This document shows positions 14,432 through 23,350 of a DNA stretch of 64,000 nt, piece by piece. Within the stretch, counting starts at the first letter, position 1. The number at the start of each line of letters is the position of its first letter. The notes under the pieces were generated by a model. It saw only the letters and a program-made list of their open reading frames with translations, was not told where the DNA came from and did not search any database. The DNA is from a bacterium (GTDB taxonomy: Bacteria; UBA10199; 2-02-FULL-50-16; JAJFLM01). The stretch covers positions 2,333,982 through 2,397,981 of the forward strand of contig CBDCFN010000016.1 in the NCBI GenBank assembly GCA_965216315.1, in the 5' to 3' direction. Made by a program: the position numbers and the translations under genes.

Positions 14432-16549
14432 TTAGATTCGCTTGCGGGTCACCGCCAAGGCGCTCATCGCCGCGAGCATCAGCAGTAACAGTCCTGCCAA
14501 AGGTTGCTGCGAACCGTTCGGGGTCAGGGCACAGCCGCCGCCGTCGCCGACCGCTTCCTCGCCTCCTTCGCCCTCACCTTCGCCTTCACCTTCGCCTTCA
14601 CCTTCACCTTCACCTTCACCTTCGCCTTCACCTTCACCTTCGGCTTCACCGGCGCCGCCGCCGACCAACTCAAAGGCGCCGAGATCACAGTTATCCCCTT
14701 CAGGACGCGCCGTCCCGAGTTGATCTTCAACGGCGCAGGTCGCATTATTACCCGCATCGACAGCCGGGCTTCCCGCCTGCAGCGCAATCGTGAGAGTATC
14801 ACCACCGTTATCCGCAAGACCCGCAGAGTCAAAGAGTGGATCGCCGGTAATCACAAGAGCAGAGTCACCAATTATATCACATTCAAAGGTGTCACCGATA
14901 AAGTTGGCTCCTATCGCAATCAGAATAGAATCGTCGTTATCCAGGTCAAATTCATGAAAGCAATCATCAACTCCCGTTCCGGGGCTAGCATCATTATTTC
15001 CCGCGATAATCGAATTAGCCAACGAGGCATTATCGACGTCGTCATAGACGTAAATACCCCCACCGTCACCATTGGTCAAACCACCGCTATCAGAGTCAGC
15101 GACATTGAACGCGACTGTCACGTTATTGAGAGCGAGAGAGTAATCTTGTTGATAGATACCCCCACCGTGTCCAGATGCTTCGTTATTGGCCACGGTTGTA
15201 TTGTACAGGCCGACATGCCCATAGCTCCAGATTCCGCCTCCATTACAATCATCAGCATCATCATCAAATCCAGTTGCGCGGTTTCCACTAATTGTGCTGT
15301 TCGTAATCGTAAGACCGTATTCATTTTCGTTATGGATTCCTGCACCACCTTCACCATCATCCATGTTATCATAACACCCAACCAAGATATTATCCGCAAT
15401 CGTTGAGTTATAAACCACGGTCACATACGCACGAATTCCACCTCCATTACCTTGATACACCACATTCCCCCGTATCGTCGAATTGTCCACGATAAGATAG
15501 TCATTGTCGTAAATCCCACCACCATAATAATTGGAATCCTGGTCGTGATTGGCTATATTCTCTTCAATTAAACTGTTTTCGACGTAAAGCGTGTAATCAT
15601 TGTAAATCCCACCACCGTCCTCATCGGCTTTATTTTTACTGACGGTGGAGTTAGTCAGGTAGAAGACGTCGCCATTGTTATAGATACCGCCGCCTCGATT
15701 GTCATAGGCGTAATTTTCCGAAACGAGGCAGTTATCCATGGTGGCCGAATAACCTGAATAAAGACCACCGCCGCTACCATCGGCTCGATTGTTCCGGATT
15801 TCACAATCTTCGAAGACATGGGCTCCAGCCGACAGATAAATCCCCCCACCATCACTATGAGACCTGTTGTTAAGGACTTGGCTATTAACCAGGCTTAAGC
15901 CGCCAGAATCCACATGAATCGCCCCACCGGAGCCACCGGCCTCATTGTTCGATAACTCACTATTGCCACTGACAATCAGGGTACCGTCACCAAGGTAAAT
16001 TGCACCCCCATCGGAAGAAGCGTCATTGTGGGTGAATTGACTATTCTCAACGGTCAGGCTGCCATCACTGTCGGCATAAATGCCTCCGCCGCTTGCCGCC
16101 TCATTACCTGTGACGAGACAGTTTATCAGCCGAAGCACGCCTGAATGACTAATGTAGATAGCCCCGCCATTTCCGGCTTGATCCCCATTCTGGAGAGTGA
16201 GCCCCGAAATCGTTACTCCGACGCCGTCATCAGTCGGATCGATTTGAAAGATGCGATCAGCGGTCGCGGGCCCGTTCCCATCAATAATACTGGTCCCATC
16301 CCCGGCCCCCTGAATCGTGATACTCTTATCGATCAGAATCTGCCCCAACCCTGGATCGATTGCGATTGTCATATTCGCTGGGATATTGATGATGTCACCA
16401 TCATCCGCCGTGACAATCGAGGTCCGTAACTGTCCTACAGCACCGGTATCGCCGTCGTTGTCAACATTAATGGTTTCAGCCTGGACCGATCCAACCGTCA
16501 AACCCAGCATTAATGCCGCCATTGAGAACGTCTTCATGACCTTACCCAT
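14432..16549 (-). other. Polyprotein module 4
   Basis: Internal signal [30 protein letters not shown]; (GE)n linker; ends GGGCALTP...[23 protein letters not shown]. Confidence 0.85.
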
Positions 16550-19500
16550 ATTTCGACTCCTCTTCCGAAAAATAGAGAACAACAACATCGACAGGAGCCC
16601 CAGCGCCGGCAGGGTGGCTGCTCCGTTCAAGCCGGCTTCGCCGCTTACGAGACTACAACCGCCACCGGAACCACCGTCCGAATCGCACGCATCACCGATG
16701 CCATCCCCATCCGCATCCGCTTGGTCGGCATTGGCATCATCCGGACAGTTATCCGTACCATCATCAACACCGTCTCCATCAGTATCACCGGCGTCACCAC
16801 CTCCATCACCATCATCACCGTCGCCATCGGCGGCATCACCGTCGCCGAATTCGAACGCTCCCAGGTCACAAGCATCCCCTTGGGGTCGCTCGACACCCCG
16901 TTGATCCGCTCCCGGGCAGCTATCCGCACTTGCGGCATCGACCGCAGGACTCCCGGCCTGCAGAGCCAGGGTCGGCGTATCACCACCGTTGTCGCTGACT
17001 TCCGTCCCAACGAAAAGGGGATCGACATGCATCACATTCGCGTCGTCCCCGATAATTTCACAGCCAGTCGGATCCTGCACGATGTTCACACCCAGCGAAC
17101 TCATATTATCACCTTCTACGGTAAAATCGCTGTAGCAATCAGGTGCCTCGGCACCAGGACTCGCATCGATGTTCCCGGCGATGATGGTATTCTGAAAACT
17201 GACCTCATCATCATTATAAATACCGCCGCCGTTACCGCCGCTGGTGCCGCCGCTATTGGCATCCGCGACGTTAAAAGCTATAGTAACATTCTGAAGCGTT
17301 GTGTTTTGACTATAGACGAAGATCGCTCCGCCATGACCATCCGCCTCGTTACCGACAAAGGTCGAATTGATGACGGTCAAAGGATATTCCGTCCAAATAG
17401 CCCCGCCATTGGCATCATCGGTCCCGTCAGTACCAAGAGCCCGGTTATTGATAAACGTGCTGTTGCGAACCACGCATGGCTCCGCCGCACAGGCAATCGC
17501 CCCACCTCCGTCTACGTCGTTTCGCGCCACGTTCTCTTCAAACAATGAATTTTCAACGACCAGTTCTTCATTGGCATAGATCCCGCCACCGCTGTTTTCG
17601 TTAGCCACGTTATTCCTGATCGTAGAATCACTTACGACGAGATAGTATTGGTTATATATTCCGCCACCATCACTCGTTTCAGCCACATTCCCTTCAATGA
17701 GGGAATCTGTAATGACGGTCCCATAATTGTTGTAAATCGCTCCACCTTCATCTTCCGCCACGTTCTCCGTAAATGTGCAGTTACTTATATAAGTCGTATA
17801 GTAACTATATAGAGCTCCGCCGTAACTCTCACTGGAATTCTGGTGAAAGAGCGAATTAGTAATTGTTGCTGCCACCTCGTCGTCATAGATAGAAACTGCG
17901 CCACCGTAGTCACTCGCCGTATTGCCGATGAATTCCGAACCATTGATATTCAATGATCCGTCGTCTTCAAAATAAACAGCCCCACCGTAACCACCAGAAG
18001 GGTCAGCCGTATTATTACGGAATGATGCACCCTGTATATCGAGTGAACCAGCATAAAAATAAATACCGCCCCCGTTATCATCCGCATAATTATTCGTGAT
18101 CTCACTCCCCGGTCCAACAATAACGGTCGCCGTGTCGCTGACATAGATCCCACCGCCATAATCGGCTCGGTTACCATCAATCCGGCTGTTCTCCACCGTC
18201 AGTGTCCCATGGTCCTCTATATAAACCGCCCCTCCATCGTCGCCAGCATCATCAACGTCGATGCCGGAAATGACACTATTGACGAGACGGACCGAACCGA
18301 ATTCTCGGATCATGATCCCGCCGCCGTCCTCATCGACACGTCCGCCGGTTATAGCCATATCTTGGAAGGTAACCGATACGCCCTGGCCGTCGTTGCCTTC
18401 GTTGTAGTCGACCTCAAAGGCGCGATCACCGGTGCTGTCCCCATTGGAGCTGATCGCCGATTTGTCTCGGCCCTGCCCCTTAATGGTGATACTGACATCA
18501 ATATCGAGGTCCGCGTCGCCGTCAGAATCCAAGGCCCCCCCTTCAGGGGTGAGCACGATCAATCCCTCGGGAAGCTCGAGGACGTCACCGTTCTGCAGGA
18601 CACCGCTATTGATGATGAAACGAATTTGGCCCGCCTCGGGGGGATCCGTATCCTCGAGACTCGTGACCTGATAGGTTGCGGCCTGGCTGACGCTCGGTAG
18701 CGCGACACCCATCAATGTGAACATCATGACAGCCATTAGTAAATTACGCATCGGTCTTTCTCCCCGTCTGAAGTAGAGCATCCCTAGAATCCCGGCCAGC
18801 AAGAGGGCCGCAAAGCCACCCGCCTGTGAACCGGTATCAGTGCCTGCAGACAAGGAACAACCCCCACCGGAGCCACTGTCGCTATCACAGACATCTCCGA
18901 TACCATCGGCATCGGCATCCGCCTGATCCGCGTTGGCATCATCGACACAGTTATCACAGACATCTCCGACGCCGTCGCCATCCGCATCCGCCTGGTCGGC
19001 ATTCGCGTCACTGGGACAATTGTCGTCGGCGTCATCAACTCCATCGCCGTCACCATCACCCGCGGCGCCGCCACCACCGCCGCCACCACCAGGAGCTGCA
19101 TCGGGATCCTGGTCGGATTCGAGGGCACCCAGATCACAGGCCGCCCCGATCGGACGCGCCGTCCCGAGCTGGTCATCTGCTTCACAGGTATTGTTATCCC
19201 CGGCGTCAATCGCGGGACTTCCCGCCGCCAAGGGCAGGGTACCATCGGAGGCCAGTCCGGCCGCATCAAACAAGGGGTCCACGTTCAGGACGCTCAAGAT
19301 ATCTCCCGTCACTTCACAGCCAACGAGATCTTGAACAATGTTCGGGCCGGCGGAGGTCACCGTATAGTTGTCGAACTCGAAATCATTCCAGCAATCATGC
19401 GACGACGGAACCGTACTCGCATCCGTATTGCCCGCAATGATGCTATTGGAAACACTCACAAAATCTTCGTTGTAGAGACCGCCGCCATCGCCGCCGGAGG

Positions 19501-22500: not shown

Positions 22501-23350
22501 AGTTGGCGATGACAAGCGTTCCACTGTTAAAAATCCCACCCCCATCTCCGTTGGTCGAGGTATTGCCCATAATCTCACTATCGGTAATCAGCGTCGCGCC
22601 AGTCGCGTAGATACCACCGCCGTTTTCATCGGCCGTATTGTCTCGAACGATACTGCTATTAAGGATCTCCAGGGTGCCCCCGCTTGAGTAGATTCCTGCT
22701 CCGTACCCGCTCGAGGCGAAAGCCGCGACCGGATCTGCTTCATTGAGATCGATCACGCTGCCTGTCACGACCACATGGCCATCGGAGTTATAAATCCCGC
22801 CACCATGGTCGGCTGATGTATTGCTTCTAACCGTGCTGCTATCGACGGTCAGATGAGCTTCACTCGCAACATAGATCCCCCCACCGTAATGATTATCACC
22901 CGTCGTTACGTTGCCGGTGACCATCGAACTGAAAAGGTGAAGCGACCCGGAATGGTCGACATAAATACCGCCACCGTTAGCAGCAACACTCCCGTTCCGA
23001 ATCGTTAGCCCGGAAATCACGACCTGGACACCCTGATCATCATTATCGATCTCGATGACCCGATCCGTCCCGCCACCATCGATGATGCTCGTCGCAAAGT
23101 CGGCGCCCCGCAACGTAATGCTCTCATCGATTTCGATCGGTCCCAGCAACAAGGTGATTGTCGTACTGGCCGGGATTTCAATCACATCACCGGGGTTGAG
23201 GGCCAAATTCTCCGCCAGGAAGCGAAGCTGACCCGCGCTCCCGTCATCGCCGGTATCCGTGACTGTGAAAGTCGCGGCCTGGACACTGGTACTGAGCATG
23301 GTCAAGGTTAAGATTGTGAATAGACGTCGGCAGATGCGGGTGATCCCCAT
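14432..23350 (-). CDS. Giant four-module surface polyprotein (beta-helix/choice-of-anchor Q, CSLREA, thrombospondin type 3 repeats, four signal peptides, four GGGC-CTERM sorting signals)
   Basis: Uninterrupted ORF; GG(G/A)I(Y/F) beta-helix repeats; four DQ(R/L)G..RP....CDLGA.E ends; DNCP..AN..Q.D.D.DG.GD.CD repeats; alternative start 23425. Confidence 0.9.
14565..14650. repeat. Hexamer tandem repeat (CCTTCA/CCTTCG)n encoding a Gly-Glu linker
   Basis: Directly visible. Confidence 0.9.
16550..18751 (-). other. Polyprotein module 3
   Basis: Internal signal [30 protein letters not shown]; ends GGGCSLVSG...[18 protein letters not shown]. Confidence 0.85.
18752..21058 (-). other. Polyprotein module 2 (CSLREA type)
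   Basis: Internal signal [37 protein letters not shown]; ends GGGCSLSAG...[18 protein letters not shown]. Confidence 0.85.
21059..23350 (-). other. Polyprotein module 1
   Basis: Signal [11 protein letters not shown]...[10 protein letters not shown]; ends GGGCSLSAG...[17 protein letters not shown]. Confidence 0.85.

Follow-up and report, generated by a model that had tools for sequence, protein, structure and literature searches.

Four paralogous beta-helix surface proteins encoded as one putative secreted polyprotein with internal sorting tags and signal peptides

In the envelope polyproteins of flaviviruses and bunyaviruses, host signal peptidase cuts at internal signal sequences. The cytochrome b/c1 precursor FbcH of Bradyrhizobium japonicum also gives rise to two proteins from one gene, through a cut at an internal signal peptide. 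Here, we describe a bacterial open reading frame (ORF) that resembles the viral precursors, in which stop-transfer helices alternate with internal signals, so that the chain passes to and fro across the membrane and several ectodomains are released. The viral proteins, however, mature at the eukaryotic ER and involve no C-terminal sorting-tag protease, and the parallel is one of functional analogy, not homology. FbcH differs in joining a membrane protein to one exported domain, with neither a sorting tag nor repeated units.

The MYXO-CTERM/myxosortase systems (MrtX/MrtC/MrtP) are likewise comparable. As far as the accessible text of two reports extends (PMC11980579; bioRxiv 10.1101/2023.06.07.544157), they share with our system a Cys motif, TM helix and Arg-rich end, a signal peptide for each unit, a single CPBP-family myxosortase-core protease, type II secretion, and tagged proteins in dozens. 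Canonical MYXO-CTERM tags lie at the extreme C-terminus and carry the motif GCGC, whereas three of the four tags here are internal and the motif is GGGC(S/A)L. There is also no evidence that the host lineage here belongs to the Myxococcota. In JDVT-CTERM/MrtJ systems a single client is encoded beside its protease, whereas the present genome has many clients and a protease that lies approximately 445 kb from the start of the window in contig coordinates.

The only published precedent found in the literature searched is the two-part MXAN_5598 of Myxococcus xanthus, which carries an internal MYXO-CTERM and which its authors interpret as two genes fused together (Guo, Haft & Wall, mBio 2025, PMC11980579). 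One Discussion paragraph, without experiment, proposes that processing and anchoring of its N-terminal part still take place; in the accessible portion of that Discussion, no mention was found of a following signal peptide or of signal peptidase. MXAN_5598 and our ORF both place a Cys-containing tripartite tag in mid-chain, and its layout of two parts with one internal tag matches that of a 995-aa ORF elsewhere in the present genome. As described there, MXAN_5598 is a single case of two unlike parts and one junction, whereas our ORF has four complete paralogous units and three junctions, conserved in diverged relatives between which the module order varies. In Haloferax volcanii, the non-C-terminal tripartite tag of HVO_0405 is processed by archaeosortase ArtA (Abdul Halim et al. 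2017, as cited in PMC11980579). As cited, this is an experimental precedent for a mid-chain sorting tag that works, but with a different enzyme family, tag and domain of life, and a single junction. A preliminary description of the locus knew of no earlier account of its architecture, but a two-part form of it is already noted in the Discussion of PMC11980579.

In the window, the whole stretch of 64,000 nucleotides analyzed, the locus is one ORF at 14432..23425 on the minus strand, which translates to 2997 aa without an internal stop and agrees to the base with the in-frame polyprotein ORF first proposed. Translation most likely begins at M26 (window 23350), the position also proposed earlier, with an SD-like AGGGGG 6 nt upstream. 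The upstream promoter candidate is a consensus match, which is no sign of function by itself. A scan of the locus found no site comparable to the terminator-like hairpin at any of the three junctions. The features are collected in Table 1.

Table 1 Features of the four-module ORF and its flanks, in window coordinates.
Feature	Position	Strand	Remarks
Sigma-70-like promoter candidate, TTGACT-18-TAGACT	23480..23509	-	Upstream of ORF; consensus scan only, 9/12 matches
Module 1 signal peptide, 25 residues	23276..23350	-	Likely start 23350; n-h-c grammar with VxA
Module 1 mature part: beta-helix, choice-of-anchor Q, TSP3 acidic linker	21167..23275	-	NF041518 78.6 bits, TSP_3 70.8 bits, Chlam_PMP 44.1 bits
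Internal sorting tag 1: GGGC, spacer, TM helix, RRRF	21059..21166	-	36.6 bits to the genome's own tail profile
Internal signal peptide 2, 25 residues	20984..21058	-	AGGAG 6-7 nt before its ATG
Module 2 mature part: CSLREA start, beta-helix, choice-of-anchor Q, TSP3-like linker	18869..20983	-	TIGR04214 29 bits, NF041518 53.4 bits, Beta_helix 63.2 bits
Internal sorting tag 2: GGGC, spacer, TM helix, RRGERP	18752..18868	-	43.8 bits to tail profile
Internal signal peptide 3, 24 residues	18680..18751	-	GGGGAG before its ATG
Module 3 mature part: beta-helix with PMP repeats, choice-of-anchor Q, TSP3-like linker	16667..18679	-	NF041518 77.3 bits, Chlam_PMP 78.5 bits
Internal sorting tag 3: GGGC, spacer, TM helix, RKRSRN	16550..16666	-	31.2 bits to tail profile
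Internal signal peptide 4, 24 residues	16478..16549	-	AGGAG 7 nt before its ATG
Module 4 mature part: beta-helix, choice-of-anchor Q, Gly/Glu repeat linker	14543..16477	-	NF041518 73.4 bits, Chlam_PMP 63.9 bits; (GE)n repeat in linker
Terminal sorting tag 4: GGGC, spacer, TM helix, RKRI	14435..14542	-	39.7 bits to tail profile
Stop codon TAA of ORF	14432-14434	-	Directly after terminal tag 4
Intrinsic-terminator-like hairpin and T run	14385..14397	-	3' of stop codon

The ORF consists of four beta-helix/choice-of-anchor-Q modules, each ending in GGGC, a spacer, a TM helix and a basic cluster that leads directly into the next signal peptide, with no stop at the three junctions. GGGC begins at residues 754, 1520, 2254 and 2962 (window 21166, 18868, 16666 and 14542), in exact agreement with the positions first proposed, and is followed in all four copies of this tripartite tag by a hydrophobic stretch and then basic residues. 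A further 2209, 1442 and 708 residues follow the three internal tags. The signal-like segments end in VQA, VRA, SQA and VQA, and the mature parts start with ATFTV, ETITV, ATYQV and ETINV, all as anticipated from the first inspection of the DNA.

That inspection had also suggested a search with the CTERM-family models, in which none of the four tags reached the cut-off of either named family. TIGR03901 (MYXO-CTERM, cut-off 20 bits) gave 13.8 bits in module 4 and no match at E<=0.1 in modules 1-3; lineage-specific rebuilding of the MYXO-CTERM model is often needed, according to the accessible text of bioRxiv 10.1101/2023.06.07.544157. Membership of JDVT-CTERM/MrtJ was rejected, since NF033191 reached 18 bits (cut-off 27) in module 4 only, the Asp-Pro (DP) motif is absent from the helices of all four tags, the MrtJ model scored 56.3 bits (cut-off 75) on the genome's CPBP protease, and the clients are many.

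Profile searches place choice-of-anchor Q (NF041518, cut-off 25 bits) in all four modules, as proposed, at 53.4-78.6 bits; the genome has 29 matches to this model. Chlam_PMP repeats are common to all four modules, and there are linkers of TSP_3 or TSP3-like type. CSLREA (TIGR04214) exceeds its cut-off of 25 bits in module 2 only, near the mature N-terminus, and in a module tree the CSLREA-type modules, one from each of seven four-module proteins, form one clade (SH-aLRT 94). The other modules are 40-43% identical to module 2. We used AlphaFold2 to model module 2 (mean pLDDT 73.7, mostly 80-98 over module residues 71-510), which was predicted to form the regular short strands of a right-handed parallel beta-helix. 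The best PDB matches of the model are beta-helix proteins, with Rhombotarget A at the top (9cdv_A, E 8.2e-05, TM 0.25/0.41). Calling the modules adhesins is a guess.

We compared the ORF to six homologues from different assemblies (2858-3060 aa, 32-49% identity), taken from the best 120 matches, each of which has four modules and three internal stop-free junctions; the homologues are mostly of one class and are not independent lineages. Together, the seven proteins provide 21 internal junctions and 7 true N-terminal signal peptides. The junction grammar of Cys tag, TM helix, basic loop, h-region, small-x-small site and conserved mature start is found at 21/21 junctions, and the internal signals match the true N-terminal ones. 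A basic n-region, an h-region and small residues at -3/-1 occur at all 28 module starts, as scored by a rule-based -3/-1 script that mis-places a few sites, and an A/E/T-T-x-x-V type start follows most of them. In five of the homologues, a helix is retained in all 15 internal tags but missing from the 5 terminal ones, which are short (GGCSL[IV]R). A need for the helix in threading the chain would predict this contrast; the short terminal tags checked in one genome, G010, have real stops and terminators. Module order varies, being III-I-II-IV here and II-IV-III-I in homologue P0002.

A same-family genome, G001, keeps junction 2 without a stop. Here, GGGC is identical to ours (4/4), as are 21/58 residues of the hairpin, 48/60 of the next mature residues and 395/607 of the module-2 body. 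This is the pattern of a discarded targeting peptide, with a hairpin that diverges faster than the sequence around it. At least one match running from tag through signal peptide without a stop is present in 13 of 93 genomes of the class, with several loci checked by eye. In G056 and G020, in-frame neighbors are parted only by a stop (RRRMK, stop, GGVMKK and RRRMA, stop, RTPKGGSMK, respectively), which shows a one-step origin of the fusion. The six homologues bear out the preliminary view that three stop-free junctions are no accident, and a pattern of four separate genes in all relatives, which would have marked a one-off fusion, was not seen.

Within the genome, about 14-15 other ORFs end at their extreme C-terminus in the same Cys-TM-basic tag, which we take as a real terminal sorting signal in this organism on the strength of these sequences. 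Three further ORFs carry a tag-to-signal junction. One is the 995-aa ORF, in which an adhesin, tag and signal precede an OmpA-type protein, and another, of 1166 aa, offers only a badly placed TTG at its junction. Among the fusion partners elsewhere are a lipoprotein signal that has a lipobox and an outer-membrane protein of OmpA type. The enzymes needed for the proposed cuts are both encoded. The lone PF02517 (CPBP) protein scores 118.1 bits against NF040914 Mrt_core (cut-off 100), a cut-off exceeded in 80/93 genomes of the class; its best equivalog, MrtP, reaches 175.8 bits, below the cut-off of 250, and the sequence assigns it to myxosortase at the family level only. There is one signal peptidase I (153.4 bits), and GspD secretin, the type II secretion subunit searched, scores 522.5 bits (TIGR02517, cut-off 351).

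We propose that the four paralogous beta-helix surface proteins are made from this gene as a true secreted polyprotein, a reading to which we give a probability of roughly 0.72; the cell would probably make one long chain and then cut it into four. Signal peptide 1 would start Sec export of module 1, and the helix of its Cys tag would stop transfer. The basic cluster would remain in the cytoplasm and double as n-region for the signal peptide behind it, and this signal peptide would re-start export of the following module. This cycle of out, TM, in, signal, out would occur three times. Signal peptidase I would cleave behind each small-x-small site and the single myxosortase-family CPBP protease at every GGGC tag, the Cys of which would probably be lipidated beforehand. 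The predicted products are four proteins, each with its own anchor, that the type II secretion system could bring to the surface, and three hairpin peptides of approximately 60 residues for degradation. This threading with two cleavages had been proposed at the outset; its sequence-testable parts hold (junction grammar, conservation, enzymes, and long internal against short terminal tags), and the cleavages themselves we infer.

The junctions could also be viewed as an operon without stops, in which modules arise mainly from separate internal Shine-Dalgarno (SD)-ATG starts and read-through is tolerated but is not the selected mode, its chains being harmless because the hairpin is topologically neutral. 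An SD motif lies 6-8 nt before the ATG at all three junctions (AGGAG, GGGGAG and AGGAG), compared to a 5-mer SD before 2.7% of 8545 internal ATGs, a contrast inflated by basic-loop codons that are purine-rich anyway. By our own count, five of nine Arg codons upstream of the junction ATGs are AGR, against 12.5% genome-wide; purine-rich motifs also precede ATG at junction 2 of G001 and junctions 2 and 3 of G010, and unfused neighbors with in-frame spacers of 3-8 codons exist. However, without stops each upstream ribosome must read on, and fused chains are made regardless. Met is absent at 10 of the 21 junctions, and among 19 junctions with DNA in hand, 11 keep ATG, six have only GTG or TTG, and two, including that of the 995-aa ORF, lack any in-frame ATG, GTG or TTG; the poorly placed TTG of the 1166-aa ORF points the same way. 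We consider this reading unlikely, though not negligible. The SD and ATG kept at each junction suggest that ribosomes probably also start at each module, so that the locus would behave as an operon minus its stop codons. For the polyprotein, such initiation probably supplements read-through in this gene, and separate initiation may be the main route here.

The same topology would also fit an uncut multi-pass protein, whose seven helices would remain in the inner membrane and whose four large beta-helix domains would stay linked to one another in the periplasm. Such anchors would need neither a conserved GGGC nor a small-x-small site at a set distance from the mature start, yet both are kept at 21/21 junctions; the tag also ends about 14-15 other proteins of the genome, sequence change is much quicker in the hairpin than on either side of it, and the lipobox lipoprotein and OmpA-type fusion partners must leave the inner membrane. 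We find an uncut chain quite improbable. An assembly artifact, or a pseudogene decaying through recent stop loss, is hardly credible, although the assembly is of metagenome type, in 16 contigs. Read evidence across the junctions had been suggested as a check, and Logan contigs of four runs (two samples of one study, possibly the assembly's own source) cover all three without indels. Close to the junctions they differ at one position, 16568 (A>G, in one run), a change that is synonymous by codon reading. The domains are intact in all modules, and the architecture recurs in the six diverged homologues as well as in G001 and G010.

More broadly, and at somewhat under even odds, we suggest that a tag helix, basic loop and signal peptide form a general, evolvable linker for Sec-threaded precursors cut by housekeeping enzymes. 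If so, adjacent genes with a long tag and a signal peptide would fuse by losing one stop codon, units would be added, lost and re-ordered as cassettes, as the differing order here and in P0002 would reflect, and co-production of the units would be fixed at 1:1. On this view, the class-wide gene order lspA-lgt-myxosortase would point to Lgt as the missing enzyme for lipidation of the tag cysteine.

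The open reading frame extends over 2997 codons without a stop on the minus strand of the window (14432-23425), and the coordinates and motifs that the preliminary description had given for its four modules all proved correct. Downstream of every GGGC motif lies a spacer of 10-20 residues, followed by a hydrophobic helix and a basic cluster. Beyond the basic clusters of tags 1-3 the frame stays open, and the chain passes through a Met and another hydrophobic segment to VRA, SQA or VQA, which precede the mature-type starts ETITV, ATYQV and ETINV; the N-terminal counterpart is VQA/ATFTV. 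Promoter-like and terminator-like sites flank the ORF, and a terminator scan found no terminator-like sites at the three junctions, where a tag runs into the next signal peptide.

Features of the four-module ORF and of related loci. Plain numbers are window positions; G000 is the genome of the window and C16 its contig.
Feature	Location	Strand	Remarks
Promoter-like site	23509-23480	-	upstream of ORF
First ATG of ORF	23425	-	
Likely start, M26	23350	-	AGGGGG 6 nt upstream; typical signal peptide begins there
GGGC, tag 1	21166	-	residue 754
GGGC, tag 2	18868	-	residue 1520
GGGC, tag 3	16666	-	residue 2254
GGGC, tag 4	14542	-	residue 2962
Module 4 linker	14562-14663	-	(Gly-Glu)n repeat
Terminator-like hairpin	14397-14385	-	immediately past ORF stop
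1166-aa ORF	G000 C16:1082894-1086391	+	internal Cys tag into signal peptide; two beta-helix units, second without tag
754-aa ORF	G000 C16:1726212-1728473	+	tag into lipobox signal; small acidic protein and lipoprotein with FG-GAP-like repeats
995-aa ORF	G000 C16:2256004-2258988	-	thrombospondin-repeat protein and OmpA-type outer-membrane protein
lspA-lgt-myxosortase-family protease	G000 C16:1903461-1906751 (locus L029)	same strand	outside window; protease directly downstream
Short-tail examples	G000 C16 offsets 1710760, 1712932	+	
Short-tail examples	G000 C16 offsets 120776, 123984, 129678	-	

All four modules contain Chlamydia-PMP-type repeats and match the choice-of-anchor Q model (78.6, 53.4, 77.3 and 73.4 bits for modules 1-4, cut-off 25). 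Module 1 has thrombospondin type 3 (TSP3) repeats (70.8 bits), while module 2, to which the other modules are 40-43% identical, begins with a CSLREA domain (29 bits against a cut-off of 25) and matches Pfam Beta_helix. For the tags, JDVT-CTERM and MYXO-CTERM both remained below cut-off, and we do not assign the tags to either model. AlphaFold2 predicted a confident beta-helix for module 2 (pLDDT mostly 80-98 across residues 71-510), with a disordered Asp-rich linker and one helix at each end, corresponding to the signal peptide and the tag helix. Comparison of this model to the PDB gave beta-helix proteins as top matches, the first being Rhombotarget A (E 8.2e-05), with low TM-scores; the label 'adhesin' for the units is a guess. 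The linkers of modules 1-3 are of the thrombospondin-type Asp-rich kind, and that of module 4 is a (Gly-Glu)n repeat.

The three junctions are each covered without indels by independently assembled contigs from four public runs, which represent two samples of one study, possibly the source of the assembly itself. The sole difference close to a junction is 16568 A>G in one run, at a third codon position and synonymous by codon reading. The joints and loose ends of the contig mapping fall within the TSP3 and (GE)n repeats and have sides about 20 letters long; we rejected these as variants of the locus and attribute them to cross-matching with other organisms or repeats. The (Gly-Glu)n linker was passed over as a repeat in the mapping.

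Next, we searched for homologues using residues 1300-1800 as query against targets of 1648-5245 aa, and examined the best 120 of 1116 matches. Most of these 120 were thrombospondin-repeat proteins aligning with the linker only, and six stood apart (P0002-P0006 and P0020; 2858-3060 aa, 32-49% identity, different assemblies). Each of the six has four modules and three internal junctions of the same grammar. In the seven four-module proteins, every one of the 28 module starts (7 at N-termini and 21 internal) showed a basic n-region, an h-region and a small-x-small motif when scanned with a rule-based script, which set a few sites wrong by a few residues. An A/E/T-T-x-x-V type mature start follows most of these segments. 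The loop lacks a Met at 10 of the 21 internal junctions. At the level of genomes, G001 (same family, 63-67% identity) has a contig-wide open frame across junction 2, and G010, from another family of the class, carries 2-module and 4-module ORFs in tandem, with P0003 lying within a 3091-codon frame. A scan of genome contigs with module 2 returned two contigs of a same-family MAG and otherwise mostly TSP3-linker matches in unrelated phyla.

Comparison of the window's genome with G001 reveals identity at 4/4 residues of GGGC, 21/58 of the hairpin (tag helix, loop and signal), 48/60 of the next mature residues and 395/607 of the module-2 body. The hairpin keeps its physical grammar while drifting faster than its flanks, as would be expected of a discarded targeting peptide. 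Five of the six homologues end in a short tag, GGCSL[IV]R and then a stop, whereas all 15 internal tags of these five proteins are of the long form with a helix. In G010 the stops after short final tags are real, with terminators or the next gene coming after. Thus, the helix is kept exactly where the chain must continue, consistent with the helix acting as a stop-transfer segment during threading.

A quick maximum-likelihood tree of the 28 modules (short search for support, several nodes below 95) led us to reject a strictly positional orthology, since the labels m1-m4 require 13 changes on the tree. One clade (SH-aLRT 94) consists of seven CSLREA-type modules, a single one per protein. By clade reading, the module order is III-I-II-IV in the ORF under study and II-IV-III-I in P0002, which is a rotation. 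The order varies among P0001-P0006 and P0020 (P0001 being the ORF itself), as if cassettes had been shuffled at conserved junctions. The pattern of the tree indicates that the units are older than the split of these proteins and were re-ordered while the junction grammar stayed.

We then looked for the same arrangement elsewhere in the window's genome (2.96 Mb, 98% complete), in which about 14-15 ORFs terminate in a long Cys-helix-basic tag. These were counted with a C-terminal pattern; our own tail profile (12 seeds) found only its seeds and one N-terminal lipoprotein signal and was dropped for counting. Among its 1327 ORFs of at least 300 aa, the hairpin pattern gave 27 matches, and the 21 without a Cys tag look like ordinary multi-pass membrane proteins. 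The six that follow a Cys tag are the three junctions of the ORF under study and three in further ORFs of the same contig (table). The junction of the 995-aa ORF contains no in-frame ATG, GTG or TTG anywhere, so its second half can only arise by read-through. With a profile of 11 junctions, stop-free matches running from tag through signal peptide were found in 13 of 93 class genomes (families f1, f4, f7, f9, f13, f15 and f23), several of them confirmed by eye, which extends the internal junctions beyond the locus first described. Beside fused copies in G056 (contig C64, locus L040) and G020 (contig C11, locus L027), two other genomes of the class, there are same-frame tandem paralogues parted only by a stop and 3-8 codons (RRRMK*GGVMKK and RRRMA*RTPKGGSMK, respectively). 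A single stop loss would make a fusion of such neighbours, and they are the apparent one-mutation precursor of the fusions.

A short, helix-free tail of the GGC(S/A/T)L-x-R type closes about 24 ORFs of 150 aa or more in the window's genome; in G010 (loci L025 and L028) it closes at least seven. In length this tail equals a CaaX box extended by one or two residues, and the sorting protease of this lineage belongs to the CaaX-protease family. We know of no description of this short tag.

The window's genome encodes exactly one CPBP protein (PF02517), which scores 118.1 bits with the myxosortase-core model (cut-off 100) and is closest to MrtP at 175.8 bits, under that model's 250. Also encoded are signal peptidase I, at 153.4 bits, and a GspD secretin, at 522.5 bits. 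A sorting enzyme adjoining the ORF is ruled out, as its neighbours are housekeeping genes (KefC-like antiporter, fpg, thrH, cysC/cysH/cysQ-like). The protease lies instead in an lspA-lgt-protease cluster (table), and by tblastn, 26 of 30 loci examined in other class genomes have lgt next to this gene, with two of the four misses cut by contig ends. MrtX has been shown to cleave the MYXO-CTERM tag of TraA, which contains the Cys, both in M. xanthus and in E. coli, with the type II system providing surface delivery; an Lgt-like enzyme has been proposed, though not proven, to lipidate the Cys (PMC11980579). The neighbourhood supports this published guess that Lgt lipidates the tag cysteine.

We propose that the tag helix crosses the membrane out-to-in, with the basic cluster obeying the positive-inside rule and also providing the n-region for the signal peptide that follows and would cross in-to-out. 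Cleavage by signal peptidase I and the myxosortase would yield four proteins plus three hairpin peptides. The chief rival is that the modules are made mainly by internal initiation at the junction ATGs, and the Shine-Dalgarno-type motifs AGGAG, GGGGAG and AGGAG do lie 6-8 nt before the three ATGs, while such 5-mers precede only 2.7% of 8545 internal ATGs in this genome. Similar purine motifs occur in G001 and G010 at junctions having a Met. AGR codons account for 8/23 Arg codons in the junction loops, compared with 12.5% genome-wide and 7/35 in terminal tags. Among 19 junctions with DNA available, 11 have an ATG, six have only GTG or TTG and two have none. Against internal initiation as the main route, the junctions contain no stop, which makes read-through chains inevitable. 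The locus probably still behaves in part like an operon in which ribosomes also initiate at the individual units. The polyprotein reading advanced in the preliminary description is supported in silico, and the ORF would encode a conserved four-unit secreted polyprotein in a myxosortase-type sorting system with internal tags.

Such a polyprotein is not categorically new. One paragraph of PMC11980579 describes MXAN_5598 as having an internal MYXO-CTERM that separates an adhesin from an OmpA-type part, interpreted there as an untested two-gene fusion; the authors cite work on LPXTG and Haloferax HVO_0405 for mid-chain tags that work. This paragraph on MXAN_5598 is the only printed mention of such a design that we found. 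Internal sorting signals and second signal peptides are not mentioned in the sorting-tag papers listed by the search, nor are internal tags discussed in the GlyGly-CTERM paper (PMC13393428). Literature searches on internal signal peptides or polyproteins in bacteria, in which one viral review surfaced, and on the Bradyrhizobium japonicum cytochrome b/c1 precursor FbcH returned nothing relevant.

The textbook view of bacterial protein export pairs one gene with a single signal peptide and a single product. In this case as many as four complete units, each bearing an export signal and a surface-sorting tag, are conserved in one reading frame, and two targeting signals would combine into a linker that removes itself. 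Should the cuts be confirmed, the arrangement would parallel viral envelope polyproteins in a bacterium, would explain the recurring internal 'C-terminal' tags in genome annotation and would caution annotators against reading such giants as single adhesins. The arrangement could supply a natural design for the co-export of several proteins from one transcript, and the system gives the myxosortase field a handle on which enzyme modifies the tag cysteine.
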